From assembly GCA_033763455.1 (NCBI GenBank), contig JANRKO010000057.1, positions 1 through 45,014 on the forward strand: DNA of 45,014 bases, given 5' to 3'. The notes below the pieces were generated by a model. That model was not told the origin of the DNA and searched no databases. It saw nothing but the letters and a program-made list of their open reading frames with translations. Origin of the DNA: Polyangiaceae bacterium (GTDB lineage: Bacteria; Myxococcota_A; Polyangia; Polyangiales; Polyangiaceae). Positions 19,605 through 42,734 of the stretch are shown here, one piece after another. Positions within the stretch are counted from its first letter, which is position 1, and each line of letters starts with the position of its first letter. A program made the translations under genes and the position numbers.

Positions 19605-19738
19605 GCCAAATCAGATATCTATCACGGTCCTCGCATTCCAGAAACAAAACGGAAACCCCAAGTAAGGCGTTTTTAGCCGGTTTTCCTAGCTTGGACCCAC
19701 GGCCGCTGGTAAAACGTGGGTGGTTTTGGAGGCGCACC

Positions 19739-24960: not shown

Positions 24961-25938
24961 ATGATCACCCGCTCCATCCTTCTTACCGCAATCACTCTGT
25001 TAGCCCTCACGTCGACGGCTGGTGCTCACATTCAGCTGGTCGAGCCGAAGGCGAGGATCCCAAATGATCCTGGGATAAAGATGGGTCCTTGCGGCGGGGC
25101 GGTGTGGGGCGCAAACGGAACCACAACGTTCGCTCCTGGGCAGCAGATCACGCTCAAGATTGTCGAAACCATATCTCACGACGGTGCTTTTCGTGTTGCG
25201 ATGGACTTGGATGGCGACAACGACTTCACGCCAATGGTGAACAGTCAGGTCTTCGCGGACTTTCAGACATTCTTCGGTGGTGGAACTCCGGCAAATCAAC
25301 TCCCTGCGGAGGTGACGACATCCGTAACGGAGGGCAACATGCTCGTGCTCCGTAACTTTTACGGCTCTCACCCAGGAGGCGCCTGCCCTAGTGGCGTAAT
25401 GGAGTCCACTAACGGGGAGGAGGGCTGCGTCTGGAATATCAGCGTCACGCTTCCCACACAGCACTGTGAGACTTGTACACTCCAGGTAATCCAGATGATG
25501 TCAGAACCGGGCCGCGCTTACGGTAACGGCTTCTATTATCATTGTGCAGACATCAAGATCACAGGAGAGCCCACGGACAACACGGGCGGCGCCGGCAATA
25601 CTGGAGGTAGTTCCGCGAGTGCAGGCGGAGCGGCCAGCGGTGGCAACTCCAACGGCTCTGGAGGCGTCGCGTCTTCAGCAGGTGGGGCTGCAAGCGCTAC
25701 TGGAGGCAAGAGTACCGGTGGTGCTGGCCCCATCGCTTCGGGGTCGGGCGGAGCCAAGAGCATGACCACCGGTGGCGCACCTGTAGCCGGAACTGCCTCA
25801 CCGCAAGGCGCGGGCACCGAAGAGGATTCTGGCTGCGGAATCGCAGGGCGCGCATCCTCAAAGTGGGCCTGGCTGGCACCCCTTGGGCTAGCCGCTTTGC
25901 TTGCACGGCGAGCGCGGGCGAAGAAACATCTGAGCTAG
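24961..25938 (+). CDS. Secreted LPMO-like His-brace protein (SCE4755-like) with MYXO-CTERM sorting signal
   Basis: Signal peptide ...TAGA|H leaves His1. KMGPCG, ISHDGAFR, CETCTLQVIQ and YYHCADI follow, then a Gly/Ser/Thr/Ala linker and the C-terminus SGCGIAG..WAWLAPLGLAALLARRAR. Confidence 0.8.
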   Translation: MITRSILLTAITLLALTSTAGAHIQLVEPKARIPNDPGIKMGPCGGAVWGANGTTTFAPGQQITLKIVETISHDGAFRVAMDLDGDNDFTPMVNSQVFADFQTFFGGGTPANQLPAEVTTSVTEGNMLVLRNFYGSHPGGACPSGVMESTNGEEGCVWNISVTLPTQHCETCTLQVIQMMSEPGRAYGNGFYYHCADIKITGEPTDNTGGAGNTGGSSASAGGAASGGNSNGSGGVASSAGGAASATGGKSTGGAGPIASGSGGAKSMTTGGAPVAGTASPQGAGTEEDSGCGIAGRASSKWAWLAPLGLAALLARRARAKKHLS

Positions 25939-26004: not shown

Positions 26005-26541
26005 TTAACCAACCCCCTCCGCGATCGGGTTTTGGTACACAACGTCCATTGAAAGGCTGATGCCGAGCGATTTTAGCTCGATCGACTGACCGCGGCGTGC
26101 CTCCCAGATTTCCCATTGGCCGCTCTCGCCTCGCCGTTGCACTTCAATCCGGGGCTCATCTTGCGCTAGAAAAACGAGCTCTTTGAGGGAAGCCAATTGC
26201 CGATAGTGCGCAGACTTGGTGCCCCGATCGTATCCCTCCGTCGATTCAGAGAGCACTTCCACTATCACCACAGGATTGGTGATGGCATGCTTGCTTTCAG
26301 GTGCCGTCTTTAATTCTCCGCAGACAACGCTCACATCTGGATAGGTGTGAAGAGCTGTTGCATCAATGTAGATGGCCGCGTCTGAAGAAAATACTCGGCA
26401 GGGTTTGCCACGAAGAGCGACACCAAGCTCCCGCATAAGCGCGGCGGCCAAAGCCGCATGCTCTGGAGTGCCCCCAGCCACAGCAAAGACCTCGCCCCGC
26501 AAGAATTCATGCTTTTCGGTCGCCCTTTGCTCAAACTCCAC
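26005..26541 (-). CDS. Uma2 (DUF820) family PD-(D/E)xK endonuclease-like protein, possibly N-terminally truncated
   Basis: KHEFLRGEVFAVAGGTPEH, YPDVSVVCG and NPVVIVEVLSESTEGYDRGTK. Confidence 0.85.
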   Translation of the reverse strand: MEFEQRATEKHEFLRGEVFAVAGGTPEHAALAAALMRELGVALRGKPCRVFSSDAAIYIDATALHTYPDVSVVCGELKTAPESKHAITNPVVIVEVLSESTEGYDRGTKSAHYRQLASLKELVFLAQDEPRIEVQRRGESGQWEIWEARRGQSIELKSLGISLSMDVVYQNPIAEGVG

Positions 26542-27118: not shown

Positions 27119-28855
27119 TCATTGGGCGTTCGATTCCGTAACGCGCTGCGCATCCAGAATACGATACGCTGCCCAATGCACGGGCGCGTTTTTCGCGGCC
27201 AGGCGATCGACAAAAGCAAGCCAGGCGGCTTGTGGTGGGGAAGAGAAACGAGAGACTAGCTGGAGCTGCAACATCTTTCGTGATGCGTCCGGTTCCCCAA
27301 GGGCGGCCTGCCTAACTTGTTGCACCAAGGCCTCAGGGTAACGCTCCACCGGACGACCCGCAGCGTTAGTTTCTACAACCAGCAGCGTCGGTGGGCGTCC
27401 TCGGACGGCTTGCTCAAGAAATAGGTGCGGGTAGGTCCAGCTGGCGTCGACTCCTTGCAAGCCTCCGTATACCTCGGGCGCAGAGGCCAAATCTTGCACC
27501 ACGCGCTGGGGCCGCTCCCGCCGAACCAGCTCAAGCAACGCCTCCACGCTAGCTGCGCGCTTATCATTCCACAGCGTTGGGTACCAGAAGAACGGCCTTA
27601 CAAGGAACGCTCCGGCCAGGGTAGCGGCTGCGGCAATCGTCCAAAATCTGCCAGGAGCCCAGTGCTCACGCGTGCGATTTGTTCCGAGCACCACTGCCGA
27701 CATGAGACCAAGCAAGCATAGGTCGAGCGCTAACTGCCCCCACGCGCCGTAGCGCCCCAACACAATGGCTATGGCGCTCACCAGCATGGAATGAACAAAC
27801 AAGCGTCGGAACTCAGGTGCTGATTGCACCCATAGGCTGACGCCTAGAGCAATGAATACGGCGACAACAGGAGCGGTAGGCGTGTAGTTGCGCGCATTGA
27901 CGGCGGCCACGGCGTGCCCATCAGGCAGACCGAGCCAGCCTTTAGGAAAGACTACCAGCGTATTCAGGAGCAAATAGTGAATGCCGATCGTTCCCACTAA
28001 CAACAACAATGTGAAGCGGTCGTTCTTTGAAGAAAATAGCCTCGGAGCACCAAAAATCCCAACGAAGAGCCAGGGCAATGCTGGCGCGGCTAACACGGCT
28101 GGCAACCCGCTGAGCACGTTGTAACGCAAAACGCCTGAAAGGCCCCAGCTCCGAAAGGAGGCGTAGGAGCTGTGACTAAACCAGAACAGATCGTGAGACG
28201 CTAGAATGCCAGCGCCCACCCAGAGAACAAACGGTAACCCTGCCAAGACTAGCGGGAGCCACCAGCCCCAGCGCCGGATGCTGCTAGCATCGCGTTCGCG
28301 CCAGCAAGCGAGCGCCAGCCACGCGCCGATGAATCCCGTCACCGGCAACATTTCCGCGCGACAAAGTGGCACAAGGCCCGCACAAAGACCGGCCAATGCG
28401 CGCTTTTGGTGCACGAGGCATAACCAAAGCGAGAGCGCGACGAAGAATGCCGCGGGCACTTCGGTCATGGTGACAAAGGCGTCTTTCAATACGGCCATTT
28501 GTGCCGCGAAAAATACCACCGCAAACCAGAGCCCATTCGCCAAATGAGTTGGAACTAACCGTTGGCAGAGCAGTGCGGTAAGGAAGCCCGTTGCCACCGT
28601 TAGCCCGACGCTCACTAGGCGGGCAGCGTGTAGGCCCAGAAGCCCTGCCACACCGTAGAGCAAGCCAGTAAGAGGCTTGTTCCAAACGTCCAGGAGCCAG
28701 GCGCTCACGTTCAAGGTCGAGACTTGCTGGAAGCTGCGGGCGAAGTGCTGGTACGAGTCGTCGTCTAACCGCAAGCCGCTTACCAAGCTCGCGCACGTTA
28801 GCAGTACCAGGAGAACCCCTAGTGCGACGTGTAGCCGAGACTGCTCCGTTAACAA
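27119..28855 (-). CDS. Polytopic membrane protein, probable GT-C glycosyltransferase
   Basis: First TM then LDDDSYQH, WNKPL, MTEVPAA and PLCRAE motifs, about 12 TMs. Confidence 0.68.
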   Translation of the reverse strand: MLTEQSRLHVALGVLLVLLTCASLVSGLRLDDDSYQHFARSFQQVSTLNVSAWLLDVWNKPLTGLLYGVAGLLGLHAARLVSVGLTVATGFLTALLCQRLVPTHLANGLWFAVVFFAAQMAVLKDAFVTMTEVPAAFFVALSLWLCLVHQKRALAGLCAGLVPLCRAEMLPVTGFIGAWLALACWRERDASSIRRWGWWLPLVLAGLPFVLWVGAGILASHDLFWFSHSSYASFRSWGLSGVLRYNVLSGLPAVLAAPALPWLFVGIFGAPRLFSSKNDRFTLLLLVGTIGIHYLLLNTLVVFPKGWLGLPDGHAVAAVNARNYTPTAPVVAVFIALGVSLWVQSAPEFRRLFVHSMLVSAIAIVLGRYGAWGQLALDLCLLGLMSAVVLGTNRTREHWAPGRFWTIAAAATLAGAFLVRPFFWYPTLWNDKRAASVEALLELVRRERPQRVVQDLASAPEVYGGLQGVDASWTYPHLFLEQAVRGRPPTLLVVETNAAGRPVERYPEALVQQVRQAALGEPDASRKMLQLQLVSRFSSPPQAAWLAFVDRLAAKNAPVHWAAYRILDAQRVTESNAQ

Positions 28856-28977
28856 CGGCGCGGAGACTAGAGGAGCCCGCCTATGCCCACAAGAGTACGG
28901 CCCCGCCTGAATTTCGTGACGGGAGAACGCGCTTAGACTACACGCAAAAGAGCACCCCCTTCATTGCCCCCAAAGAA

Positions 28978-29901
28978 ATGCCCTCGCTCAAAACCACCCC
29001 TGACGAGATTGTGCGCTGGCTCGGCCTGCGGTTTCGTGTCCCGTGTGATTGGCAGATGGTGCGCCACAGCAAAAACCCCGAGAAGGGCTCGGTGGTGTTT
29101 GTGGATAGGCGGCGGGAGCGATTAGAGGTGCACTGGCAAGATTGTTCGAACGAGCCGGATCTAGAACGCATGGTTGATAACCAGCGCTCGTTAGCGAAAA
29201 AGCAGGATCCTGAGGCGCACACAGAGTTTCTGCGGGGGCTCGGCAATTGGCGCGGGCTGCGCACGCAATCTAAAGGGGCCGTGTTGAGCCGGGCTGTGCG
29301 TTTTGATCCGAAGACGCAACGCTTGGTGGATTTGGTCGTAAGTTCCTCGGAAGACGAAGACGTGAGCGATTTTTTTCCGTGGTTCTGCCGACACGTTGAA
29401 GTTGAGGCCAAAGGCCCTGACGCGTTGCGGTGGGCCTGCTTTGACATCGATCTCACCATGCCCGAGGGCTACAGGTTGCGCGATGCGGACATAAAGCCGT
29501 GCGACGCCTCTCTCGAATTTGAAGAAGTTGAGGCCGAAGGTGAGGCGCGGGTGCGAAGGCGCATCCGAGTCCGCCGGTTGGGTTTGGTCGACTCTTGGTA
29601 CACAGGCGATCCCGCGGGGCTGCTCCGGGCTCAGTCCGCCAAGCTAAGATTCAACGAGTTTACCCAACTCACGGAGGGGACTCATCCGGCGACCGAAGGC
29701 CGCGCGGTCGAGCCGACCACCTTAATCCCTAGGCTTGCCGGCCGGCAGGTGCATGCTCGGGTGCGGCTTTGGCATTGCGAGCCAGAAAACGCCTTGTACG
29801 AGGTCACATGCTCGGGCTATCGGAGTGCGCCCAATTGGCCCACCGATTTGAAGGTACACTGCCGCCCCCACGACCATGACCCGGGCTCCCGAGAAGCTTG
29901 A
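28978..29901 (+). CDS. Hypothetical soluble protein with apparent internal duplication (first gene of transporter operon)
   Basis: Two similar segments, WLGLRFRVPCDWQM and WACFDIDLTMPEGYRL. No signal peptide or TM. The stop overlaps the next gene. Confidence 0.65.
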   Translation: MPSLKTTPDEIVRWLGLRFRVPCDWQMVRHSKNPEKGSVVFVDRRRERLEVHWQDCSNEPDLERMVDNQRSLAKKQDPEAHTEFLRGLGNWRGLRTQSKGAVLSRAVRFDPKTQRLVDLVVSSSEDEDVSDFFPWFCRHVEVEAKGPDALRWACFDIDLTMPEGYRLRDADIKPCDASLEFEEVEAEGEARVRRRIRVRRLGLVDSWYTGDPAGLLRAQSAKLRFNEFTQLTEGTHPATEGRAVEPTTLIPRLAGRQVHARVRLWHCEPENALYEVTCSGYRSAPNWPTDLKVHCRPHDHDPGSREA

Positions 29902-30256
29902 TCCCTCTCAGATGCTCGATCTGGTGCCTGCCGCCAATCGTGCGGTCCGGGCGGAAGAGCGCGGTCAGACTCTGATCCTCTACGTTCCGATTCAGCGGCG
30001 CTGGTGGATGCGTGGTCCGTTCGGGTGGCTGCTTCCGTTTCGAAAGGAGAAGGGGATTGCCCTCGACTCCTTAGGGCGAGAGGTCTGGGAAGCTTGTGAT
30101 GGCACGCGCACGATTGAGGATATCGCTGAGGGTTTTGCCGCGCGCCACCGCGTGAGATTTCATGAAGCGAAGCTAAGCGTCACCACCTTCCTGCGTTCGC
30201 TCGTTGAGCGCCGGGTCGTGGTGCTCGTGCTTACGGAGCCGGTGAACAGCCAATGA
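29876..30256 (+). CDS. PqqD-family / RiPP recognition element (RRE)-like protein
   Basis: LDSLGREVWEACDGTRTIEDIA...AKLSVTTFLRSLVERRVV is the PqqD winged-helix signature. Confidence 0.85.
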   Translation: MTRAPEKLDPSQMLDLVPAANRAVRAEERGQTLILYVPIQRRWWMRGPFGWLLPFRKEKGIALDSLGREVWEACDGTRTIEDIAEGFAARHRVRFHEAKLSVTTFLRSLVERRVVVLVLTEPVNSQ

Positions 30257-31722
30257 AGGCGATTGTTGCAAAGAGTCAGGTGGCCCTAGGGCCTGCTCGG
30301 GGTGCCCAGCTTGCGCTTTCCGGCATGTCGTACCGGATGTTTCGCTCTGCAGTTACGATCGCGATCTTGGCGCTCGCCACCGCCTTTCTCGTGCACATGT
30401 TGGTTTATGGCCTTTTAGCGGGTCAAACCGAGCGAAATGCCTACCGTGATCTGCAGCGGTTGCGCGCGTTTGGCGAACAGATCACCCGCCTCGCGCATGT
30501 GGATGCGCCGACGAAGATCATGGCCACCTTGGCCGCGGGTGAGCCGTCGCGCTTGCGTGAATACCGCGGCTGGGCCAAGGGCGATGCGAGCGAGTTTGAC
30601 CGCGCTCATCGTGTCGCTGAACGCCTCTCACGTGTTCGCCAGTCGCTCGTGGAATTGCCGCCCACCGCGCAAGCTGTGCTGCTTGGTGATCTCACAGCGG
30701 ACGAACTCCTTGAGTCTCTTCGTCAACCGGAGCAGCTCACGTTGTTCACCAAGAAGCTCGCACAACTTCAGCTCGGCTCCCAAGCAATCGATCAAGTCGA
30801 GCTCGTGCGTTTGGTAAGCACGGAAATGGGCGCGTTGCACGACGTGACGGCTCGCATCGGTGCGGGGCATCTCGCAGCTGTGACCAGCTTTGCGGCTCAC
30901 TATCCTGAAAAAAGTGCGGAGGTGATCGCGGCGGAGCCCCCAGCTGATTTTGAGCGCACGCTCCAGAAACTAGGGTTTTTCAAGGATGCGGAGCTCTCGG
31001 AGCTCGCAGCATTCGCGAGCAATGCCCGCGACGAGCGCACCATCGGGGAGCTTCTGCTAGAGGCGGATGTTCGCAGCCAAGTCGCTCGCGAGCTGAACCT
31101 TTTGCCCAAAGATGTCGATCTCAAGAAGACTCTCGCGTATGCGGCGGACGGTGGGCACGCAGAATGGTTGGCGGGTGTGCTCGCTCAGGTAAGCGCTCCC
31201 AAGAACCTTACCGGTGAACGAGTACACGAGCTGGCCGAAGCGTACGGTCGTCGCTCAACTCTAGAGGAGATGCTCGGAGATCGCGTGCCAAATGACGGCG
31301 GGGGTTTCTTGGGTTTGCCCGAAAGGCTGCGTTGGTTGGTGGTGCTTTCTTTCTTGGTGTGCGTTGTTGGCGTGGCCAATGCCATGTTGATGAGCGTTAC
31401 CGAGCGTTTCACTGAAATCGCCACGATGAAGTGCCTGGGGGCGATGGACGGCTTTGTGATGATGATGTTCGTGTTTGAGGCGGCTATTCAGGGCGTGATT
31501 GGCGGCCTGGCTGGCCTCGTGCTTGGGTTATTGCTGGCGGCGTTACGCGGAGCCGTTGAATATGGTGGCCTGTTTTTCGCATTCGACGGCATGGGGCTGC
31601 AGCTTCTTCTTGCAACGCTGCTTTCCTTGTTGGTGGGTGTCGTCCTGGCTGCCTTGGCGGCGGTAGGCCCGTCCTGGGTCGCGGCCCGCCTCTCACCGAT
31701 GGAAGCAATGCGGGTCGAATAA
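30253..31722 (+). CDS. FtsX/MacB-type (type VII) ABC permease
   Basis: N-terminal TM, large extracytoplasmic domain, GVANAMLMSVTERFTEIATMKCLGA and AARLSPMEAMRVE. ATGA overlap with the PqqD gene. Confidence 0.9.
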   Translation: MKAIVAKSQVALGPARGAQLALSGMSYRMFRSAVTIAILALATAFLVHMLVYGLLAGQTERNAYRDLQRLRAFGEQITRLAHVDAPTKIMATLAAGEPSRLREYRGWAKGDASEFDRAHRVAERLSRVRQSLVELPPTAQAVLLGDLTADELLESLRQPEQLTLFTKKLAQLQLGSQAIDQVELVRLVSTEMGALHDVTARIGAGHLAAVTSFAAHYPEKSAEVIAAEPPADFERTLQKLGFFKDAELSELAAFASNARDERTIGELLLEADVRSQVARELNLLPKDVDLKKTLAYAADGGHAEWLAGVLAQVSAPKNLTGERVHELAEAYGRRSTLEEMLGDRVPNDGGGFLGLPERLRWLVVLSFLVCVVGVANAMLMSVTERFTEIATMKCLGAMDGFVMMMFVFEAAIQGVIGGLAGLVLGLLLAALRGAVEYGGLFFAFDGMGLQLLLATLLSLLVGVVLAALAAVGPSWVAARLSPMEAMRVE

Positions 31723-32483
31723 TGCAGGAAATGCGCCCCAGAGAGGCTCCGAAGAAAGCCGTCATCATCCGCACGCTTGGGCTCGAGAAGAGCTACGGCA
31801 TGGGTGATGCCACCACCTATGCTTTGCGGGGTGTCGCCGCCACTATCTACCGCTCCGAATTCATTGCCGTAATGGGCCCTTCGGGCTCCGGCAAGAGCAC
31901 CTTCTTCAACATGATCGGCGCACTCGATGCGCCTAGCAAAGGGCGTATTCTGATCGACGAAGTGGATGTGGCTCAGCTTTCCGCTGTTGAGCTCGCTTTC
32001 CTTCGCTGTCAGAAGATCGGCTACATCTTTCAGAGTTACAACCTCATCCGCTACATGACGGCACTTGAGAACGTTACCGTTCCGATGACGTTCGCGGGCG
32101 TGGTGCCCGAAGAGGCTCGGCGCCGTGGCCTCGATCTTTTGGAGCTCGTAGGCTTGAAGGAGCGCTGGGCGCACAGGCCAAGCGAGATGAGCGGCGGCCA
32201 ACAACAACGCGTGGCAATCGCCCGGTCTATGAGCAACAACCCCAAAATCCTCTTGGCAGACGAGCCCACAGCCAATCTCGATTTCAAAACGGGGCAAGAT
32301 ATTCTTGAGATCCTGCAGCGTATTAATCGAGAGCGGGGCGTTACCATCGTGTGCTCGACACACGACCACCGTCTGTTGAACGTTTGCGATCGCATCATGT
32401 GGATTCGTGATGGCCTCGTCGAACGCGTTGAGGAGCGAGAAAACATTCGGATCAAGCTCGGTACCATCGGCGGTGAAGCATGA
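31722..32483 (+). CDS. ABC transporter ATP-binding protein (LolD/MacB-type)
   Basis: [25 protein letters not shown] and STHD. TAATG overlap with the permease. Confidence 0.95.
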   Translation: MQEMRPREAPKKAVIIRTLGLEKSYGMGDATTYALRGVAATIYRSEFIAVMGPSGSGKSTFFNMIGALDAPSKGRILIDEVDVAQLSAVELAFLRCQKIGYIFQSYNLIRYMTALENVTVPMTFAGVVPEEARRRGLDLLELVGLKERWAHRPSEMSGGQQQRVAIARSMSNNPKILLADEPTANLDFKTGQDILEILQRINRERGVTIVCSTHDHRLLNVCDRIMWIRDGLVERVEERENIRIKLGTIGGEA

Positions 32484-35400
32484 GACATTGGTTGCGAATC
32501 GTCGCAGTACTTTTGCTGGCCTTAAGTGGTTCTTGGATTTGTGGGTCGCTTTTGGCCCACGCCGAAGACGCGCCGCAGAAAAGCGCTGATCCATCGGTTG
32601 TCTCACAGGGAACTCCTTCGTCCGCGTCCGCAGCGGGGGCACCGTCGGTGTCAGAGCAGGCTGCAGCGGGTGCGGGGGGCGCCGCTCAGATTGCTGATCG
32701 ACCGCTGACTCGAGAGGAGAACGCTTTTCTTTTTGACCTCCAACAGCTTACCAAACATCCGCACCGCTTAGCCGGCTCGCGCAATGGTTTTGAGGCGGCC
32801 GAGTACATTACGGCTCAGCTTGGGCACATGGGCCTCCAAACGTTCTTTGTCGACATGCCCGTGTGGCAGATGGAGACCGAGCGGTCGGAACTCTTGGTTA
32901 ACGGGCAGCGAGTTCAGGTTCACACCATGAGGCCCAATATCTCGGCCCTGTCCGTTACAGGTCCCGAGGGCGTGAGTGGGCCGCTGCGCTATGTCGGAAA
33001 AGGAACCTTGGAGGCCTACGGTGAGCGCGGGGTGGAGGGCGCTATCGTTGTGCTTGACTACGATAGCACCGGAGGCTGGCAACGTGCGTTTGCGTACGGT
33101 GCCAAGGCTGTGCTGTTCTTGGGCCATGGCGACGCCGTTGCGTCCGAGCCGAGAAATTCCGGCGTTCCCGCCAACTGGGTGCGGGCCTATGTTTCGGCGG
33201 ATCAGACCGCGGTCGATCTCACGCGCGATTACGACAAGGCCGAGCTCTTCATTGAAGGTCGCTGGCGGCGCACGGAAGGTCGAAATATTGTCGCGCGCAT
33301 TGCCGGCACCGCACCGGGCTTCGCCGGTGAAGGGGGCCAAGCTGAAGCCGTGGTGCTCTCTGCCAATTACGATACTTTTGGGGTCGTCCCGGAGCTTTCG
33401 CAAGGAGCACGGGGTGCAGCGAACGTGGCGGCGCTGTTAGAGGCCGCACAGGTGCTCAAACAAAACCCACCCAAACGCGACGTTATCCTGATGTTTTTGG
33501 ACAATCAGGCGCGTTACCACCAGGGTGCACGGGAAGTCTACGAAGCGTGGTTGTCCGATGCGGATGAGCTCACGCGTCGCGGCGAGGAGCACAGAAAAGA
33601 GTTGCTCCATGTGCGCGCGATGTCGCTTTTGCTTGAGAAGAATGGGCTCCTGTTCGATCGCGCCCCGGAGCCGCCGGGCGGTGGAGCCGCCAAGATTTGG
33701 CTCAAGCGCGCCCTGGTAGAAGCAGCCAATTTTAAGCGCGACGACGTGCGAAAGATCGTGGAGGTGATGCGCCTCAAAGCGGGGCGTGCTGGAGCCGTCG
33801 AGATTGCTCCCGAGGTTCGTCGCTTGGAGGCTGAGGCCCTGCGTTGGGACGAAATCCGACGAGCGCTTCATCAAGGTGCGCTTTCGGCCTTTGTTGAAGG
33901 TCAGGCGCGTGGCGGTGCAAACAAAGGAGAGGCCAAGCTCTACCAGACTCTCTTCCAACAACTTCAAGCAGCCTCAGGTTCACGTTTTAAGAAACGCCTG
34001 AATGAGCTCACCGCTCTGGTCGAAATGGACGATCAGAAGGTTGCGTTGCGCAAGGTGCTGGCCCCCGAGGGCAAGCCGCTGTTTATCGTGTTCCACGCGC
34101 AATATAATCTTTCGGATGGTGGCGCCACGTGGGGTGTTGTTGTCGGGGATTGGACCTACGCCCTCACGCCGTGGCGCTTACCGGCGGCTGGCACGGACGC
34201 TCCCGGGTATTACGGTGGGCTGCTCGGCGCGTTGCGCGCGACCTCAAGCCTCATTCCCCAAACGGTGAACCAGCTCGATCCCAGGACACTCACCGATCCC
34301 CTCTTTGGTCTCACGTTCGCGCCCGCGCCGTTTGCAGTTTCCAGTTCGATCGCCGGCACCTACGGCATCTACAACTTTGCTCTCATGAGCGGTGCTGATC
34401 GTCGTCCACGTGACGGGCAGCCTACCGACACGTTAGGCCGTTTGAACTGGGCCAGAGTTGAGCGTCAGGGGCTCGAAGCCACCCATCTCATGGCGGCCGC
34501 TGCGAGCTCCGCTGAAGTATCCTTGCCCCGAGTGCTCGCCGCGCAGAAGTTGAGTCGATACCCCACCTGGGACAGCGGCTCTCAAGGGGGAGATTACGCG
34601 GGGCTACAGGTCAGCGGGAGCCTGGCTGAAGATCGCCCCGCCGGCGGCGCCATGATTGCGTTGTGGCCGGGCAGTATAGCCTTTGCAGGTGCGGGAGAAG
34701 CTTGGTCGTCTTTGAAGGACGCCCAGGTTATTGCTGATTTTGAGCCGTTTGCGCTCGAGCCCGTGGATCAGAACGGTCGCTTTCGTCTGCTGGGGCTTCG
34801 GAACGATGTCCACTCCGAGATCATGGTGCTCGGCAGCTTGTTCGACCCAAATGGACGCATTCAAGCCATTAGCACGCAAGAAGGACAGGTGAAGCTCGCC
34901 ACCGAGCTTATTCGGAGCAACCTCTTCTTTGGTGAACAATATCGTTGGATGGCGCGTCGCGGCTTCGAGAGTGACCCGAAGCGCTTCAAGCTGCTCAAGG
35001 CCAATTCAGACTCGGCCTTCAGGACGAACCGTTCGCTCTGGGGGCAGCTAGGCGATCAGTATTTCGCCTATGTGTCGGATCAGATTGTCGATCGCCGGCT
35101 CAAGGTGTTCCAGGTGATGGGTGCTGCCGCGCTTGGCCCCTTCTCACCAAAGTCTCCGTACGGATCTGGGCTCGATCCAAAGGAAGTTTCTGGGAGCTTC
35201 TCGATTGCAGACAACTCCGCCAACGATCTCTGGAATCTGAACGAGGCTCGCCTAGGGCAGCTTCGGGTCCGCGGGGTGACAAGCCCCGACATTGAAGTTT
35301 TGCACAGCCGTGCGCTTCGCATCAAAGAACAAGCTAAAGCGGAGCCAGATCTTGCCAAGCAGGCAGGCGCGTTCGCTCGAAGTGCGGCGCTTTCACAGCG

Positions 35401-37531
35401 GGTCTATCTCCCGCTTCGCAATACGATGGATGATTTGGTGCATGCCATCGTGATGCTGCTCCTCCTTGCTATTCCGTTCGCGTTTGCACTTGAGCGCCTG
35501 ATTGTGTGCGCTACCACGATCTACGGGCGTTTGGCCGGCTTTACCGGGATGTTTTTGGGCACCTTTGGGCTTTTGTACTTCATGCATCCGGGCTTCGCGA
35601 TTGCAGCAACGCCGGTCATTATCTTCTTGGCGTTCGCCATTTTGCTGCTTTCGAGTTTGGTCATCTACATCGTTGTCAGAAAGTTCAAGACGGAGCTCAA
35701 GGCCATGCAGGGGCAAGCTTTGGGTGTTCACGGCCTTGAAGTTTCGCGCATGGGAACCATGTTGGCGGCGGTTGGCATGGGTATGTCCACGATGCGGCGG
35801 CGCCCAACGCGCACCACATTAACGGCCATCACGGTTGTGATTCTGACCTTTACGACGCTCGTATTCGCATCGTTTAGCCAGAAGGTTGGGCTCCGCACTA
35901 CCTACGAGGGCCCGAAGAGCCCGCACACGCGGTCATCCATTGCGATGCACCAGCTGGATTACTCCCCGTTACCGGAAGGCGTGAAGGATCTTGTATTTGG
36001 CCAGGAAGGTGTAGGCGGCCTGGTGGCCCCGTATTACTGGCTGACGAAAGATACCAAGAACAAAGCCGTAGACGTGCGTTTCTCTGTGGCTCGCGCTGAC
36101 GACGGGCGCTCCATGGCGATTGATGCTGCCATGGGTATTTCGGATGCTGAAGTGCCTCGTTGGCCGGAGCTTACTGCCACATTGGGTGAGGGAACCCCTG
36201 AGGCCAAGCGCCTTCGGCTGAAGTCTGGAGCGGTATTTTTGCCGCCCATCGTTACCGATGTACTTGAGCTCAAAGTGGGCCAGGCAATCTTGGTGAATGG
36301 CCAGCCTGCCACGTTCGGCGGTTCAGTGAATACGGCCGAGCTTCAGCGTTTGAAGCACGTGGATGGGCACAGCGTGCTGCCGGTGGATTTTCAAGCGTTG
36401 GAAAGCGGCCCAGCTCAAATTCAGGCTGACAAGAGCGAAACGGAACTTGCATTCGCCCAAGATGTGGCCCGTGATTTTGTGCATCTGAGTGCCGATCAAG
36501 TCATGATTGCCTCGTCGGATTTCGTCCAACGCTTAGGCGGCAAGCTTTTTGCGCTGGGTATCTACCCGGGCGAAGGCGTGGATGTTCAGGCACGGGGCCG
36601 AGAGTTAGCCGAGACACTGGTGATGCCGGTTTGGGCTGCCGGGCCATCGGGTGTCGAGCGGCTACTCCTCACAGAACTCACGGAGGTGTCGGGAGGATTT
36701 GCTCTGTTCGTTCCGCTCCTGCTTGGCGGCTTGATCATCTTCGGCACGCTGCTCGGATCCATCAGCGACCGGGAGCGCGAGATCTACACTTTCTCGGCGC
36801 TTGGGCTGTCCCCTGGGCACGTAGGCGTACTGTTCTTCGCCGAAGCCGCCGTCTACGCCGTGGTCGGCGGTATGGGTGGGCAGCTTTTGGCTCAGTTCGT
36901 GGCTTTGGGCGCATCGGCTCTCGCCAAGGCTGGCTACATGAAGCCTGCGGCGATCAATTTCTCGTCCACGAATTCGCTCTTCGCGATTGCTGTGGTGATG
37001 CTCACGGTGCTGGTCTCAGCTGTTTATCCGGCTGTGCGAGCCTCCCGCAGTGCCAACCCGGGTTTGGCACGAGCATGGCGGTTGCCCGCTCCCGAGCAGG
37101 ATGATCTGAAGCTGAAGTTCCCCTTCACGGTGTCGGCTTATGACATCACAGGGGTAGTAAGCTTCTTGGCTGAACACTTCCGCGCTCACGACGATGCCGG
37201 TCTGGGTAGCTTTGCGGCGTCGGACGTGAGCATTCGTCGCGGAACGCAGGGCAACTTGGAGCTCACCGGGCGTTTTGCGTTGGCTCCTTTTGACCTTGGT
37301 GTAACCCAACACCTAACGCTCATGGCGGCGCCGTCTGAGATTGAAGGTGTGGATGAAGTGGCCATCCATGTGCACCGCGAAAGCGGGGCTAGCAATGATT
37401 GGTTCCGTGCCAATGGCGTGTTCATGCGTGATCTTCGGCAACAATTCCTGCTGTGGCGTACGCTTTCGAACGACATGATCGAGCACTACCGCATGGAAAC
37501 ACTCAAAACTTTGGGGCCAAACGAGGCCTAG
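32480..37531 (+). CDS. 1683-aa fusion: signal peptide + degenerate M28 peptidase/PA domain + TM bundle + FtsX-type permease
   Basis: HRLAGS, GPLRYVG, RNIVARIAG, VVLSANYD and VAALLEAA (M28 fold), followed by RRRPTRTTLT-TM and GSISDREREIYTFSALGL (FtsX). ATGA overlap. Confidence 0.85.
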   Translation: MRHWLRIVAVLLLALSGSWICGSLLAHAEDAPQKSADPSVVSQGTPSSASAAGAPSVSEQAAAGAGGAAQIADRPLTREENAFLFDLQQLTKHPHRLAGSRNGFEAAEYITAQLGHMGLQTFFVDMPVWQMETERSELLVNGQRVQVHTMRPNISALSVTGPEGVSGPLRYVGKGTLEAYGERGVEGAIVVLDYDSTGGWQRAFAYGAKAVLFLGHGDAVASEPRNSGVPANWVRAYVSADQTAVDLTRDYDKAELFIEGRWRRTEGRNIVARIAGTAPGFAGEGGQAEAVVLSANYDTFGVVPELSQGARGAANVAALLEAAQVLKQNPPKRDVILMFLDNQARYHQGAREVYEAWLSDADELTRRGEEHRKELLHVRAMSLLLEKNGLLFDRAPEPPGGGAAKIWLKRALVEAANFKRDDVRKIVEVMRLKAGRAGAVEIAPEVRRLEAEALRWDEIRRALHQGALSAFVEGQARGGANKGEAKLYQTLFQQLQAASGSRFKKRLNELTALVEMDDQKVALRKVLAPEGKPLFIVFHAQYNLSDGGATWGVVVGDWTYALTPWRLPAAGTDAPGYYGGLLGALRATSSLIPQTVNQLDPRTLTDPLFGLTFAPAPFAVSSSIAGTYGIYNFALMSGADRRPRDGQPTDTLGRLNWARVERQGLEATHLMAAAASSAEVSLPRVLAAQKLSRYPTWDSGSQGGDYAGLQVSGSLAEDRPAGGAMIALWPGSIAFAGAGEAWSSLKDAQVIADFEPFALEPVDQNGRFRLLGLRNDVHSEIMVLGSLFDPNGRIQAISTQEGQVKLATELIRSNLFFGEQYRWMARRGFESDPKRFKLLKANSDSAFRTNRSLWGQLGDQYFAYVSDQIVDRRLKVFQVMGAAALGPFSPKSPYGSGLDPKEVSGSFSIADNSANDLWNLNEARLGQLRVRGVTSPDIEVLHSRALRIKEQAKAEPDLAKQAGAFARSAALSQRVYLPLRNTMDDLVHAIVMLLLLAIPFAFALERLIVCATTIYGRLAGFTGMFLGTFGLLYFMHPGFAIAATPVIIFLAFAILLLSSLVIYIVVRKFKTELKAMQGQALGVHGLEVSRMGTMLAAVGMGMSTMRRRPTRTTLTAITVVILTFTTLVFASFSQKVGLRTTYEGPKSPHTRSSIAMHQLDYSPLPEGVKDLVFGQEGVGGLVAPYYWLTKDTKNKAVDVRFSVARADDGRSMAIDAAMGISDAEVPRWPELTATLGEGTPEAKRLRLKSGAVFLPPIVTDVLELKVGQAILVNGQPATFGGSVNTAELQRLKHVDGHSVLPVDFQALESGPAQIQADKSETELAFAQDVARDFVHLSADQVMIASSDFVQRLGGKLFALGIYPGEGVDVQARGRELAETLVMPVWAAGPSGVERLLLTELTEVSGGFALFVPLLLGGLIIFGTLLGSISDREREIYTFSALGLSPGHVGVLFFAEAAVYAVVGGMGGQLLAQFVALGASALAKAGYMKPAAINFSSTNSLFAIAVVMLTVLVSAVYPAVRASRSANPGLARAWRLPAPEQDDLKLKFPFTVSAYDITGVVSFLAEHFRAHDDAGLGSFAASDVSIRRGTQGNLELTGRFALAPFDLGVTQHLTLMAAPSEIEGVDEVAIHVHRESGASNDWFRANGVFMRDLRQQFLLWRTLSNDMIEHYRMETLKTLGPNEA

Positions 37532-37543
37532 CAGGGACTGAAG

Positions 37544-39646
37544 ATGGCGGACGTGCGACCCAAAACACCCGGATTTTTCAGCCGAAAGCACCGTGCGGAT
37601 ACGGAGCTCGAAGAGTTCCGTTCGCTCATGAAGGCACCTGGAACCTTCGAGGACGGCTTCAGTTGGACGGCATTCGCGGGGGCACTGTTCGTCGCGATGC
37701 TCATGGTGCCAGGCTCCATCTACATGACCCTAATTGCGGGTCTTTCGATTGGCCCAGCAGCGCAATGGGTGACGGTTATCCTGTTTATCGAAGTAGCTCG
37801 TCGCGCGAACAAGCACCTGCGTCGTGCCGAAATCTTCACGCTCTTCTATTTGGCTGGCGCCATCATCGTTACGGCCTCGATGGCACAAGGCCAGTTTCAG
37901 GGGGGCCTCGGTGCTATCTGGGCGCAGTTTTTCGCGCAATCCGATGCTGCTCGTGCTGCCGGTATCGCGGAGAAGCTTCCAACATGGATCGTGCCGACCG
38001 ATCCTGCCGTTCTCGATCAACGCTCCCTGCTGCTGCCTGAGTGGCTGCCGGTGATTGGCCTAGTGGTTTTCACTATGGTGATTGGGCGCATCGACAACAT
38101 GATCCTCGGCTACGGCCTCTTCCGCCTGACCAGTGATATCGAGAAGTTACCGTTTCCAATGGCTCCTGTTGGCGCTCAGGGCATCATGGCGCTCTCGGAG
38201 GAGCAAGACAGCGAGACAAGTGCGCGTGAAGGCACAGCGCTTGGCGAAAATACGGCGCAACAGGCTTCCTGGCGTTGGCGCGTATTTTCAATTGGCAGCG
38301 TGCTCGGGATCGTGTTTGGAGCCATCTACATTGGGATCCCAACCGTAACCGGTGCCTTGCTCGACAAGCCCATCACGATTTTGCCGTTGCCGTTTAAGGA
38401 CTTCACCTCGCAAACCGGGCAGTTCTTGCCGGCGGCAGCGATCGCAATTTCCTTCGACCTCGGCATGCTGCTCTTGGGCATGGTGCTTCCCTACTGGGCT
38501 GCTGTGGGTACGTTTGCGGGGCTCGTTATTACGCTCTTGCTCAACCCCATTCTGCATCTACCCGAGATCGGGATTTTGAAATCCTGGAACCCGGGGGACA
38601 ACATGCAGACCACGTTTTACAAGAACCAGATGGACTTCTATTTCAGCTTCGCCATCGGAGTTGGAATGGCGATAGCCATCGCCGGCTTCGTCTCGGTGGG
38701 TAAGGCTTGGGCGGCGGAGCGCAAGCGTTCCAAGCTTACGGGGCCTCGCAGCCGAATGGCGGCGTTCGATATCCCAGCTGGGCGTGGTGATATCAGGACA
38801 GCCGTGATTATCGCGACGTATTTGGGCGTCATGGCCATGTACATCACCGTCTCCACCTGGCTGCTCTACTTGGCTGACGGCGCCGTTTATTGGCCAGTCG
38901 TTGGCGTGATGCTGTTTTACGCGATTATCTACACGCCGATCGTGAGCTACGTCACTGCTCGCCTCGAAGGCATCGCCGGCGAGGTGCTGAATATTCCGTT
39001 CGTGCGTGAAGCAAGCTTCATCTTCTCGGGCTACCATGGCGTTGCCATTTGGTTCCTGCCCATCCCGCTTCACAATTACGGGGCCATGACGGTGTTTTAT
39101 CGGCAGTGCGAGCTCACAGGCACGCGCTTCTGGTCGATTTGGAAGAGCGAAATCTTGCTCACTCCCATCATCGTCGGCGGCTCGCTCCTGTTCGCCCATT
39201 TCATCTGGGGCCTCGGTCCGATCCCAAGCCCGCAGTACTTGTTCGCCCAAGAGTGGTGGGAAGTCACCGCCGCCCAGCAGTCCATCATCTTCTCCTCCAC
39301 GTTGGGTGGCTTTACGGAGTTTGAAGCGGCATTCAATGGCAACTACATCTTGGCGGGGTTGGGGGTGGGAGGTGTTCTGTTCGCGGCATTTGCCTGGCTC
39401 GGCGCACCGACATTCTTCATCTACGGCATTGTTCGAGGGTTAAACCAGACGCTACCGTTCGTGGTGATCCCGCAGTTTATCGGAGCCCTGATTGGGCGGT
39501 TCTACTTCAGGCGGCAGTTCGGGTTGGTCTGGCGCCAGTATGTCCCCGTGGTTTTCGCCGGTTTCGCCTGCGGCATGGGCCTTATCGGCACGCTCGGCAT
39601 TGGAGCCACATTCGTGTCTAAGAGCGTTTTTACGCTCCCCTTCTGA
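37544..39646 (+). CDS. OPT (oligopeptide transporter)-like polytopic membrane protein
   Basis: 700 aa with about 16 hydrophobic segments, FSWTAFAGALF N-terminus and an EKLPFP motif reminiscent of the OPT/YSL family. Confidence 0.65.
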   Translation: MADVRPKTPGFFSRKHRADTELEEFRSLMKAPGTFEDGFSWTAFAGALFVAMLMVPGSIYMTLIAGLSIGPAAQWVTVILFIEVARRANKHLRRAEIFTLFYLAGAIIVTASMAQGQFQGGLGAIWAQFFAQSDAARAAGIAEKLPTWIVPTDPAVLDQRSLLLPEWLPVIGLVVFTMVIGRIDNMILGYGLFRLTSDIEKLPFPMAPVGAQGIMALSEEQDSETSAREGTALGENTAQQASWRWRVFSIGSVLGIVFGAIYIGIPTVTGALLDKPITILPLPFKDFTSQTGQFLPAAAIAISFDLGMLLLGMVLPYWAAVGTFAGLVITLLLNPILHLPEIGILKSWNPGDNMQTTFYKNQMDFYFSFAIGVGMAIAIAGFVSVGKAWAAERKRSKLTGPRSRMAAFDIPAGRGDIRTAVIIATYLGVMAMYITVSTWLLYLADGAVYWPVVGVMLFYAIIYTPIVSYVTARLEGIAGEVLNIPFVREASFIFSGYHGVAIWFLPIPLHNYGAMTVFYRQCELTGTRFWSIWKSEILLTPIIVGGSLLFAHFIWGLGPIPSPQYLFAQEWWEVTAAQQSIIFSSTLGGFTEFEAAFNGNYILAGLGVGGVLFAAFAWLGAPTFFIYGIVRGLNQTLPFVVIPQFIGALIGRFYFRRQFGLVWRQYVPVVFAGFACGMGLIGTLGIGATFVSKSVFTLPF

Positions 39647-39666: not shown

Positions 39667-40458
39667 ATGAGCATGATTACCGATACAAATACTGCGGCCG
39701 ACTCAGCTGTGCGCGGTGCACGCCTCATCCGTGTGGAGGGCGTGTCCAAGATTTACCGCCTCAAACGCGAGGTTGTGTACGCCCTCAATCAGGTCAGCTT
39801 GGAGATTTTCAGGGGGGAATACCTCTCCATCATGGGCCCATCTGGGTCAGGCAAGAGCACGTTATTCAACATCGTGGGCGCGCTCGATCGTCCGAGCGAG
39901 GGCTCCGTGCGCATTGGCCCGCTGGACCTCACCACGCTTGGCAGCCGCGAGCTGGCGTACGTTCGCTGCAACTACATCGGCTACGTATTTCAGGCGTATA
40001 ATCTCATCCCTTCGCTCAGTGCTCTTAAGAATGTCGCTTTGCCACGCGTGTTCATGGGTGCGAGCCAAACAGACGCCGACGCAATCGCGACCAAGCGGCT
40101 AGAGCAGGTTGGGCTCGGCCATCGGCTGGAGCACCGCCCCGGCGAGCTTTCCGGTGGGCAGCAACAGCGCGTGGCCATCGCTCGCGCGCTGGTGAACGAT
40201 CCCACCATTATTTTGGCGGACGAGCCCACCGCCAACCTCGACCTCACCACCGGCGGCGAGATTATCGAGATCTTGAAGGGCTTAAGCGTCGATCACGGCG
40301 TTACCATCATCACGGCCACCCATGACCATAAGATGCTGAAGAACTCGGATCGAGTCATCAACATCCGCGATGGAAGAATCGAGAGTGTGAAGCTGCGCGA
40401 TGAGCTCAACATTCAAGAGGGTGAGATCGAAATCGGCGGCGCAGCCGTCGCGCACTAG
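39667..40458 (+). CDS. ABC transporter ATP-binding protein (LolD/MacB-type), paralogue of 31722-32483
   Basis: [24 protein letters not shown] and ATHD. Confidence 0.95.
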
Positions 40459-40856: not shown

Positions 40857-42734
40857 ATGTCCCCAAAAGAACGTTCGCCTGACGGCCTCACCGCAGAGGC
40901 AGCTTCAAACGCGCAAGTTTTACTTCGCTTGTTAAAGCTCGCCTGGCGGCACCGCGTGCGGTGTCTCCTGGTTCTCAGCCTCCAGTCGCTGTTGCTTCTG
41001 CTCGGGGTCTGGGGTCTCAGCTTTGGCGGCATTGGCGTAGACGTGATCCGCCATCATCTGCAGGCGGGTGCGCCGCTGCCGCGCTGGCCCCTTGGGTTAG
41101 CTCCCCCCGCAAGCCTAGATACCTGGCACACGTTGCTGGCGTTGAGCGGTCTTATCTTAGCTATGGCACTCTTTCGCGGGTGCCTCACCTACGTGTATTC
41201 GATTCAGGCGGGCAAGCTGGTTCATATGGACGTTGTGCCCGCAGTGCGTGCAGACGTGTATGCGAAGCTGCAACGGCTGAGTTTTAGGTTTTTTGACGCT
41301 CACGCTAGTGGATCCATCATTAATCGCGTCACGCGCGATGTTCAGCTGTTGCGTTCCTTTGTTGATGGCGTGGTTATTCAGGGCGTCATCATGGCCCTCT
41401 CTTTGCTGCTCTACGCGGCCTATATGTTTCTGACCCATCCTGGGTTAACGGCGGCAAGCTTAATTCTGTCGCCTGTTTTGGCGATTATTACGAATCGCTT
41501 TTCCAAGTGGGCGCAACCAGAATACGCAAAGAATCGCAAGCTGGTGGACGACATGGTGCTGCGCATTGCGGAGGGCACCAAAGGCATTCATGTGCTAAAG
41601 GTGTTTGGTCAGGAGCGGAAAGAGCACGAGCGCTTTGTCGAGCGGAATCTGGCCGTGAAGGAGCAGCAAACAGCCATCTTTCGAGCAGTGAGCGTGTATG
41701 GCCCTTCGGTCCAGTTCTTGAGCCAATTGAACGTTGCCGTACTGCTCGGCTACGGAGGCTGGCTGGTTTGTGAAAAGGAGCTCACGCTTGGCAGCTTGAT
41801 CGTCTTTACTGGGCTTCTGCAGCAATTCGGCGTGCAGGTGCGTACGATGGCCACGGTGGTGGATGTGCTACAGCAGAGCCTCAGCGGGGCTCGGCGTGTA
41901 TTTGAGGTGTTAGACGCACAGGTTGAGGTTCAAAGCCCGAGCGCGCCGGTGCGTCCGAGCCGCATCCAGGGTGCTCTTAAGTTTGAGAACGTTTCATTTG
42001 CGTTTGGTCCGGAGCAAGCAGCGCTTAACGATATCACTTTTGAGCTGAAGCCGGGGCAGTGCGTCGCGATCTTGGGAGGCACAGGGTCGGGGAAGAGCAC
42101 GTTGCTCAGCCTAATCCCAAGATTCTACGATCCGACGGCAGGTAGGGTCTTGTTGGATGGCGTTGACCTTCGTTCGCTCGACCTCGATATTCTGCGCAGA
42201 AACGTCGGAGTCGTGTTTCAAGAGAGTCTGCTCTTTAGCGCTACCGTTGCCGAGAATATTGCATTCGGAAAGCCGGACGCGAGCCAGGGCGATATTGAGC
42301 GCGCAGCCAAAGTTGCCCGCGTTCACGATTTCATCATGAGCCTGCCCGAAGGATACAATACGCTCCTGCAGGAAGCGGCTACCAATCTTTCGGGTGGTCA
42401 GAAGCAGCGCATTGCAATTGCCCGTGCCATTCTGTTAGAGCCGGCAATCTTGCTTCTGGATGATCCCACCGCTTCGGTGGATCCGGATACCGAGCACGAG
42501 GTGCTTGAGGCCGTGGATAGCGCAACAGCGAATCGCACCACGTTCATCGTGGCCCATCGCTTGAGCACGCTGCGCCGAGCAGACATCATTTTGGTGCTCA
42601 AGGACGGGCGTATTGTGCAGCGTGGCACACATGCGGAGCTCATGGAGCAAAGTGGGCTTTATAGTCGTACGGCTCGGCTCCAAACCGGGGATTTTGACGA
42701 CCTCGGGTTGTTGGCCTCTGGAGGAATTTCGTGA
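40857..42734 (+). CDS. Type IV ABC exporter, TMD-NBD half transporter with degenerate Walker B
   Basis: 6-TM TMD, GGTGSGKST, LSGGQKQR, ILLLDD and VAHR. Confidence 0.93.
   Translation: MSPKERSPDGLTAEAASNAQVLLRLLKLAWRHRVRCLLVLSLQSLLLLLGVWGLSFGGIGVDVIRHHLQAGAPLPRWPLGLAPPASLDTWHTLLALSGLILAMALFRGCLTYVYSIQAGKLVHMDVVPAVRADVYAKLQRLSFRFFDAHASGSIINRVTRDVQLLRSFVDGVVIQGVIMALSLLLYAAYMFLTHPGLTAASLILSPVLAIITNRFSKWAQPEYAKNRKLVDDMVLRIAEGTKGIHVLKVFGQERKEHERFVERNLAVKEQQTAIFRAVSVYGPSVQFLSQLNVAVLLGYGGWLVCEKELTLGSLIVFTGLLQQFGVQVRTMATVVDVLQQSLSGARRVFEVLDAQVEVQSPSAPVRPSRIQGALKFENVSFAFGPEQAALNDITFELKPGQCVAILGGTGSGKSTLLSLIPRFYDPTAGRVLLDGVDLRSLDLDILRRNVGVVFQESLLFSATVAENIAFGKPDASQGDIERAAKVARVHDFIMSLPEGYNTLLQEAATNLSGGQKQRIAIARAILLEPAILLLDDPTASVDPDTEHEVLEAVDSATANRTTFIVAHRLSTLRRADIILVLKDGRIVQRGTHAELMEQSGLYSRTARLQTGDFDDLGLLASGGIS

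Follow-up and report, generated by a model that had tools for sequence, protein, structure and literature searches.

The window analysed here, the whole stretch of 45,014 nucleotides (nt) at positions 1 to 45,014 of contig JANRKO010000057.1 from a Polyangiaceae bacterium (assembly GCA_033763455.1), encodes a 1683-amino-acid (aa) protein in which a large head with the fold of an M28 aminopeptidase is fused to an FtsX permease. The gene of this pseudo-M28/FtsX fusion protein (P0001) lies at 32480..37531 on the + strand, as do all features within it given below, and is defined by its open reading frame (ORF) and translation, by Pfam matches to both M28 and FtsX and by 81 relatives. As judged from the alignments, at least four of the five M28 zinc ligands are missing from the head, as is the general-base Glu, so that it should be unable to act as a co-catalytic zinc aminopeptidase; that the protein is not an M28 protease is well supported by its sequence. 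Since the catalytic residues are gone yet the head has been kept under strong selection, we favor, with a probability of roughly 0.55 and by analogy with known systems, a role for it as a non-catalytic binding module forming the working end of a heteromeric type VII (MacB/LolCDE/FtsEX-class) ATP-binding cassette (ABC) machine. A plain "M28 peptidase" label would be misleading for a protein with the M28 fold and without the M28 catalytic apparatus, as a preliminary description of this DNA had warned.

The Pfam match to Peptidase_M28 (PF04389) in the head covers only positions 1-77 of the 193 in the profile (28.1 bits, cut-off 21.3). A profile of the protein's own family, built from 77 full-length relatives, was compared with solved chains, and the best matches were 2ek8 (E 2.9e-16) and BSAP/YwaD, 6hc6 (E 2.6e-15), while the transferrin receptor (E 3.5e-5, in its apical region), nicalin (5.9e-5) and nicastrin (2.2e-3) matched more weakly. 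An AlphaFold2 model of aa 70-985, computed from a 46-row alignment, reached a mean predicted local distance difference test (pLDDT) score of 93.5 and a predicted template modeling score (pTM) of 0.93. Its top Foldseek match was BSAP (E 1.2e-16), in an alignment of about 630 columns for a target of 407 residues, which means that both core halves are matched with a large insertion between them. Superposition with VIA-align gave Z 26.3 to the Bacillus subtilis BSAP chain 6hc6_C (378 residues aligned, root-mean-square deviation (rmsd) 4.8) and Z 25.7 to the Aeromonas aminopeptidase 1amp (254 of 291 residues, rmsd 2.5), with Z of about 23.5-23.9 to the transferrin receptor and GCPII/III. The Foldseek search that the preliminary description had called for and the superposition on known aminopeptidases thus bore out an M28 fold, and aa ~76-700 are predicted by the model to be a complete aminopeptidase fold of protease-associated (PA) domain plus M28 core. 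The span of residues ~75-660 proposed at first was right as to the fold but not as to the end, which lies near aa 700 (nt 34579).

Within the head, the first helix and strand of the M28 fold are followed by an inserted PA domain (together ~aa 76-262, 32705..33265; borders approximate, from the model and the profile alignment to 2ek8, 6hc6 and the apical region of the transferrin receptor). The first half of the M28 core (aa 263-358, 33266..33553) holds N296, D298, R311, G312, N315, D341, Q343-A344 and H347, as placed by the alignments and column counts. It is separated from the second half by a family-specific helical insertion of ~170 aa (aa 359-529, 33554..34066), for which DSSP of the model gives helices of 28, 34, 26 and 46 residues and a short one of 9. 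The insertion has no counterpart in BSAP, the transferrin receptor or GCPII, since the number of aligned residues stays at 376-392 for all of them. The second half of the core (aa 530-700, 34067..34579), which contains H539, D546, W551, S622 and the motifs GIYN and DGQPTDT, was recognized by structure alignments, HMMER and column counts. HMMER places a second, weak stretch on the HTPxDT motif, DGQPTDT corresponding to the canonical YHTPxDT, and a profile of aa 520-705 made from 26 sequences found nothing at E <= 10 among solved structures.

In the Aeromonas enzyme 1amp, His97 and Asp179 bind one zinc, Glu152 and His256 bind the other and Asp117 bridges the two, according to a table in PMC7522609; Glu151 as general base is taken from the title of a reference there. 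The corresponding positions in our family were located by two alignments, a HMMER profile set against the solved BSAP and 2ek8, and an hhalign comparison with 25 canonical M28 domains from the genomes of relatives (Prob 98.9, E 1.3e-17). The M28 landmarks are found where they had been noted, ANYD at aa 295-298 (nt 33362-33373, with the Asn codon at 33365), GARGAAN at aa 309-315 (33404-33424) and NQ at aa 342-343 (33503-33508). At site 1 (His97), the canonical AHYDS has become ANYDT, so that the ligand position is N296 (33365-33367), while the Asp of the HxD motif persists as D298 in all 113 aligned family members. At site 2, that of the bridging Asp117, GAxDNASG reads GAR-GAAN, which leaves G312 (33413-33415) or a one-residue gap beside R311. 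Both alignments set the Glu-Glu pair (Glu151/Glu152) on Q343-A344 (33506-33511). The claim that the canonical pair is replaced held, as neither register contains a Glu, but its placement on N342-Q343 was one residue off. The site-5 His (His256, of the SDH motif) falls on column 622, which is S622 (34343-34345) in the query, a mapping made through the family member P0063 as aligned by HMMER to the canonical M28 model (E 2.8e-7); by hhalign it falls on the next column, 623, likewise a Ser in the query. The metal ligands are therefore replaced much as first described, with N296, G312, A344 and S622 at sites 1, 2, 3 and 5, and Q343 stands at the position of the base.

These substitutions are a trait of the family, as the conservation across relatives that was to be checked made clear. 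In a 113-row family alignment, from which all counts per position are taken, the canonical residue occurs in 18 members for the site-1 His, 15 for the site-2 Asp, 18 for the base Glu, 1 for the site-3 Glu and 0 for the site-5 His. The site-1 column is instead most often Pro (32), with His in 18, Asn in 16 and Ala in 16; the general-base column is Gln in 51/113 and Arg in 13/113, and column 622 is Gly in 86/113. Every one of the 113 members has at most 3 of the 6 canonical residues, and none of them has all five ligands together, even when 1-3 columns of slack are allowed. Likewise, a search by regular expression for an intact active-site motif found none in 231 stored proteins, and while Pfam M28 matches occur in 15 of 22 longer members, none extends beyond profile position 78.

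Conservation has nevertheless been strongest where the ligands were lost. The mean column conservation of aa 263-358 (0.56) is the highest of the outer region, compared with 0.50 for the PA domain (aa 121-262), 0.40 for the second half of the core, 0.34 for the beta region and 0.28, the lowest, for the helical insert, which argues for a maintained pseudo-peptidase and against decay. Beside the lost ligands stand near-invariant residues (D298 in 113, R311 in 102, N315 in 111, D341 in 98 and H347 in 81 of the 113 members), and the second half of the core has its own (H539 in 107, W551 in 106, N632 in 96 and T637 in 103). Such a pattern would be the signature of a pseudo-enzyme with a remodeled functional pocket.

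The family is widespread. A word-index search returned 81 full-length relatives, nearly all of 1600-1800 aa, and an exhaustive search returned 1207 representative clusters at E <= 1e-3, 128 of them at E <= 1e-30. When contigs of one genome per species were scanned, a relative was encoded in at least 549 of 599 pattern-matched stretches. Among the matches listed, relatives came from Phycisphaerae and other Planctomycetota, Verrucomicrobiota, Lentisphaerae, Kiritimatiellae, Fibrobacterota/Chitinivibrionales and Omnitrophota, and from metagenome-assembled genomes labeled Polyangiaceae. Isolates that carry one include those labeled Verrucomicrobia bacterium LW23 and Phycisphaerales bacterium AB-hyl4. 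No canonical M28 paralogue was found at E <= 1e-20 in the window's genome or in three genomes of the same genus. The only other M28 signal in the window's genome lies on another contig (C73:128933-129199, - strand), where a 464-aa frame gives a weak, partial match to profile positions 3-68 with 22.4 bits.

The remainder of the protein appears to join the head to a motor. Pfam places Peptidase_M28 (aa 269-354) and FtsX (aa 1407-1523) on the same chain, which confirms the fusion to an FtsX permease described earlier. At the N-terminus, a hydrophobic segment (aa 1-28, 32480..32563; hydropathy segment 3-28) may be a signal peptide, with AHA/ED as its putative cleavage site, or a membrane anchor. 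The Ala/Ser/Gly/Pro-rich linker seen in the sequence after it (aa 29-75, 32564..32704) is longer than in most relatives when set against the consensus of alignment A1. Two beta-sandwich domains, one transthyretin-like and one immunoglobulin (Ig)-like, follow the head (aa 704-901, 34589..35182; from a separate model with pLDDT 88.1 and a VIA search). For the first, a wide VIA search gave a best Z of 8.7 (3e8v_A, 77 residues aligned, rmsd 2.1) and Z 7.4 to the transthyretin-like domain of carboxypeptidase D, and the second reached Z 5-6 to Ig domains, values that are middling; the models suggest generic spacers. Three long helices then enter the membrane (aa 909-984, 35204..35431; DSSP and conservation), numbered H840-861, H867-885 and H889-915 in the model, and R924 and D985 are invariant or nearly so in this region.

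Between these helices and the FtsX unit lie three membrane helices that are not FtsX-like (~aa 985-1070, 35432..35689; hydropathy, invariant columns and hhalign), linking the periplasmic module to the permease and matching no known family. E1005, R1006, H1036 and P1037 in them are invariant in alignment A1. A duplicated FtsX permease of the ADOP/YbbP-like kind was ruled out, as hhalign of aa 905-1095 against aa 1330-1535 gave a Prob of 0.2%. The FtsX unit itself is complete (~aa 1095-1525, 35762..37054; Pfam, profile matches and hydropathy). Its three-helix membrane domain matches PF02687 with 36.2 bits against a cut-off of 25.5, and the unit is laid out as a basic amphipathic start, a first membrane helix, a periplasmic loop of ~265 aa and three further membrane helices, with hydropathy segments at 1111-1134, 1401-1429, 1448-1466 and 1494-1522 pointing to a four-helix topology. 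By profile it matches YtrF (1.3e-8), MacB (8.3e-8) and LolF/LolE chains. As to a periplasmic core domain of the Porter/Sabre type, matches to MacB 468-638 and LolF 205-402 extend into the loop; a Pfam match to MacB_PCD is absent from the query, and a sub-threshold match to PF12704 occurs in 1 of 22 longer relatives. Given the odd number of helices ahead of the FtsX unit, the head would be kept in the periplasm, a topology that follows from hydropathy. The chain ends in a conserved cytoplasmic domain (aa 1530-1683, 37067..37531) with many near-invariant columns and no match in Pfam or NCBIfam. Very strongly conserved stretches in it include FPFTVSAYDITG..., LAPFDLG... and FLLWR. LysM and other extra domains were also sought in the 22 longer relatives, and LysM was found in none.

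The fusion gene is the fifth of a conserved cassette of seven, whose synteny was tallied over 80 related loci, counting for each gene only those loci with enough flank. All seven genes lie on the + strand. The first (28822..29901, 52/57 loci) encodes a 359-aa protein without a Pfam or NCBIfam family, with unnamed Atlas neighbors and with weak PsbP/DcrB-like structural rows (template modeling score < 0.45). A 578-aa ORF on the - strand (27119-28855) overlaps its annotated GTG start by 34 nt, which makes the start of the 359-aa gene uncertain. The second (29876..30256, 56/59 loci) encodes a 126-aa PqqD-like protein of the type of the recognition element for ribosomally synthesized and post-translationally modified peptides (RiPPs), with a Pfam PqqD match at E 1.6e-10; NCBIfam PqqD-type models match as well, all below their cut-offs. 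The third gene (30253..31722, 60/61 loci) encodes a separate FtsX permease of 489 aa, FtsX489 (Pfam FtsX E 1.7e-14; NCBIfam LolC/E, MacB and FtsX models below cut-off), with a loop of ~300 aa, predicted from sequence to be mostly helical, between its first two membrane helices. The fourth, directly upstream of the fusion gene, encodes a MacB/LolD-type ABC ATPase of 253 aa (31722..32483, 66/67 loci; ABC_tran E 3.3e-31), for which the best NCBIfam model is LolD (3.1e-63, below cut-off). The sixth encodes a 700-aa polytopic membrane protein (37544..39646, 68/68 loci) and the seventh, two genes downstream of the fusion, a second MacB/LolD-type ATPase of 263 aa (39667..40458, 60/62 loci; ABC_tran E 1.7e-32; LolD 3.4e-66, below cut-off). 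A cognate ATPase thus adjoins the fusion gene, and the context of an ABC machine that had been proposed for the head stands on the ABC_tran and LolD matches.

Permease-ATPase-permease is the order lolC-lolD-lolE in lolCDE. Since the order FtsX489-ATPase-fusion recalls it, FtsX489 and the FtsX unit of the fusion protein may form a heterodimer on the LolD-like ATPases; the membrane region of FtsX489 matches the FtsX unit at aa ~1095-1525 with a Prob of 98.3% in hhalign. The 700-aa protein has no Pfam or NCBIfam match, and we call it OPT-like because its Atlas feature neighbors are named "peptide transporter family" and PF03169 (OPT) occurs on 33% of one near cluster, which is a lead only. The OPT-like protein and its own MacB/LolD-type ATPase are kept together (68/68 and 60/62 loci), a pairing that would be unusual if real. 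A candidate eighth gene, encoding a protein of ~670-1100 aa with DUF6785 and DUF6784, lies directly upstream of the cassette elsewhere: a long gene is found there in 34/80 loci, and all five of the upstream long genes that were scanned carry both domains (e.g. L022:1554-4829 and L002:3557-6208). In the window's own genome the DUF6785 gene is on another contig (G000:C28, L115:6646-9069), with unrelated genes around it. In our literature search, neither an M28-FtsX fusion nor the cassette nor DUF6785/DUF6784 turned up as the subject of a paper.

Type VII ABC systems do not move substrates through the membrane; their work is mechanical and is done in the periplasm, as set out in the abstracts of PMC7668044 and PMC12646458. 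By analogy, the LolD-like ATPases, in binding and hydrolyzing ATP, would drive a movement of the FtsX unit, which would be transmitted through the three long helices and the two beta-sandwich spacers to the head. There, the remodeled former active-site cleft between M28 core and PA domain could hold and release a periplasmic ligand. As the cassette includes a PqqD-like peptide-binding protein and OPT-like permeases, this ligand would most likely be a peptide or a protein terminus. The role of substrate receptor for the ABC machine, which the preliminary description had given to the head, would fit such a scheme. Taken further, the seven or eight genes might encode an undescribed envelope machine of PVC-group bacteria, Fibrobacterota and related bacteria, in which a clamp made of a dead aminopeptidase and driven by an FtsX motor grips a peptide or protein in the periplasm by its free N-terminus and passes it to or from OPT-fold permeases coupled to a MacB-type ATPase. 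We consider this fuller picture speculative and rather unlikely as a whole; if true, it would represent a novel way of handling peptides or proteins that combines three transporter classes and uses a pseudo-peptidase as the specificity element.

Several observations weigh against a binding module. Neither a ligand nor a partner or cargo was identified, and the proposal draws on conservation and analogy. Nor did the 80 loci yield, in or around the cassette, any conserved short ORF (20-75 aa) as a candidate gene for a peptide cargo; the recurring clusters of small ORFs were off-frame reads inside conserved genes. The PqqD-like and 359-aa proteins lack a signal peptide by sequence and hence should not contact a periplasmic head directly, and the "OPT-like" label of the 700-aa protein comes from language-model neighbors only. 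The loss of the metal site may also be less than complete. D298, D341, H347, H539 and D546, all of them conserved and potentially able to bind metal, lie within or close to the elements of the former active site. Site 4 (Asp179 of 1amp) maps to D573 by HMMER and hhalign and to N543-D546 by the strand order of the model. D546 (34115-34117), which is Asp in 91/113 members, is the sole acidic residue at the end of the strand formed by aa 535-543 and could be site 4. A complex prediction of the head (aa 70-700) with the periplasmic loop of FtsX489 (aa 57-357), with an alignment supplied for each, scored 0.00 in two runs without controls and bears neither way.

The persistence of these residues raises the possibility that the head is still an enzyme, an ATP-regulated hydrolase whose catalysis has shifted to other residues such as D298, D341, H347, H539, D546 and T/S637. 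Conservation reaches 72-100% for two His and three Asp in or beside the active-site elements, and the active-site half is the best-conserved segment of the head. Non-standard M28-fold sites do exist, as in the mono-zinc glutaminyl cyclases and the modeled site of GPAA1 listed in a table of PMC7522609, where GPAA1 has a Pro at site 1, as do 32/113 members here. However, the positions that hold the single zinc of glutaminyl cyclases (sites 2, 3 and 5) are G312, A344 and S622 in our protein, and across the 113 members the canonical residue is retained there in 15 (Asp), 1 (Glu) and 0 (His). The base position is mostly occupied by residues such as Gln (51/113) and Arg (13/113), H539 lies mid-strand in the model, and we know of no M28-fold enzyme that uses the set D298/D341/H347/H539/D546. 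We therefore regard a relocated activity as improbable. At the other extreme, the head could be a passive spacer, a bulky structural remnant that lacks a specific binding site and determines how tall the machine is, or how it is spaced, in the periplasm. No ligand was found for the head, and generic beta-sandwich spacers and long helices do come after it. Yet the former active-site loops of a mere spacer would not have stayed its most conserved part, nor would D298 (113/113), N315 (111/113) and H539 (107/113) be expected to hold across several phyla, and this explanation seems very improbable.

A regulator or scaffold, in the manner of EnvC on FtsEX, is harder to set apart from a substrate receptor and fits the data equally well. 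The LytM domain of EnvC is catalytically degenerate and serves amidases under FtsEX. On this explanation the head would not hold cargo but would be an ATP-switched platform on which a separate envelope enzyme or partner docks or is activated. Type VII systems act via periplasmic partners, FtsEX through EnvC in the abstract of PMC7668044, and YbbAP through TesA, to which substrates are presented, in that of PMC12646458. A former active-site region conserved with new residues is what a protein-protein groove would be expected to show, and the family-specific insertion of long helices is reminiscent of the coiled coil by which EnvC binds FtsX. That insert, however, shows the weakest conservation within the head (0.28), the fold is M28 rather than LytM/M23, and the conserved cassette encodes no candidate partner enzyme. 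We consider this role a possible but minority explanation, and continue to favor the reading of the head as a non-catalytic binding module.

The reuse of pseudo-enzymes as binding or regulatory modules is a recurring theme (EnvC, nicastrin, transferrin receptor). The present protein would add a full PA/M28 fold that has been stripped of its metal site, joined to a type VII ABC motor and kept across several phyla, and its nature is missed by either of the automated names "FtsX-like permease" and "M28 family peptidase". As a soluble domain that is predicted to be well folded and has a conserved pocket, the head may be the most tractable handle on an apparently important envelope system.

Other genes of the window are less clearly connected. 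Two ABC exporters (ABC_membrane plus ABC_tran) lie just downstream of the cassette at 40857-42734 and 42731-44563 (+), and clear homologues of this pair (59-81% identity) follow the cassette in only 3/80 loci (L001, L019 and L024; 77% in L024), so it is probably not part of the cassette. Upstream, long ORFs at 19538-23260 (+, 1240 aa) and 27119-28855 (-, the 578-aa ORF mentioned above) have no Pfam or NCBIfam family, while 24787-25938 (+) encodes a protein with a BIM1-like copper-acquisition domain (E 3.6e-8), 26005-26541 (-) a Uma2-family putative endonuclease and 16177-17721 (+) a bbp2/OmpL-like beta-barrel porin.

Among known proteins, the head is closest to bacterial PA-domain aminopeptidases. 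BSAP/YwaD (6hc6), the Aneurinibacillus AM-1 aminopeptidase (2ek8) and Pseudomonas aeruginosa PaAP (8acr) likewise consist of an M28 core with an inserted PA domain, are its best sequence-profile and structure matches (VIA Z 26.3, 24.5 and 23.9) and have in common with it the framework motifs xxYDS, PGAxxAxxxAALLE, G349 and, near the end, xPxDT. Those enzymes, though, are soluble secreted proteins of 400-500 aa with an active di-zinc site, whereas the head has other residues at the metal and base positions, a helical insert of ~170 aa that interrupts its core and a tether to a membrane ABC permease. Transferrin receptor 1, nicalin and nicastrin have the M28 fold without the catalytic zinc and use it for binding instead of hydrolysis. 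The head likewise has an apical or PA domain and no catalytic metal site, and like nicalin and nicastrin it would be part of a membrane complex, although those proteins are eukaryotic and have no ABC motor. The insert does not correspond to the helical C-terminal domain of the transferrin receptor or GCPII, as no more residues align with these than with BSAP. The likeness to nicastrin and the transferrin receptor proposed at first therefore holds for profile and fold, but not as a closer kinship, because the match to the active enzymes (E 2.9e-16, Z 26) is stronger than that to the receptors (E 3.5e-5 or weaker, Z ~23.5). We regard the resemblance to the inactive M28-fold receptors as a functional analogy and not as membership, and given the weaker sequence match to them than to active bacterial enzymes, the site was most simply lost in an independent event.

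On the side of the motor, LolCDE has a similar gene order to FtsX489, ATPase and fusion protein, and here too two different FtsX units probably share LolD-like ATPases. YbbAP-TesA, as described in the abstract of PMC12646458, is a type VII system that serves a periplasmic partner with a hydrolase fold. The NCBIfam Lol, MacB and YbbA models nonetheless score far below their cut-offs in our cassette, and LolCDE and YbbAP have no counterpart of the extra module of ~1000 aa, the second ATPase, the OPT-like permease(s) or the PqqD-like protein. By analogy, FtsEX-EnvC appears to be the closest functional precedent, since it likewise couples an FtsX-class ABC motor to a non-catalytic periplasmic domain of metallopeptidase fold by mechanotransmission (abstract of PMC7668044). 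The two differ in that EnvC has a LytM fold, is a polypeptide of its own that attaches by a coiled coil, and acts with an amidase partner in a division context that is not evident here, whereas the head of the present protein has an M28/PA fold and is covalently fused to its permease through additional membrane helices.

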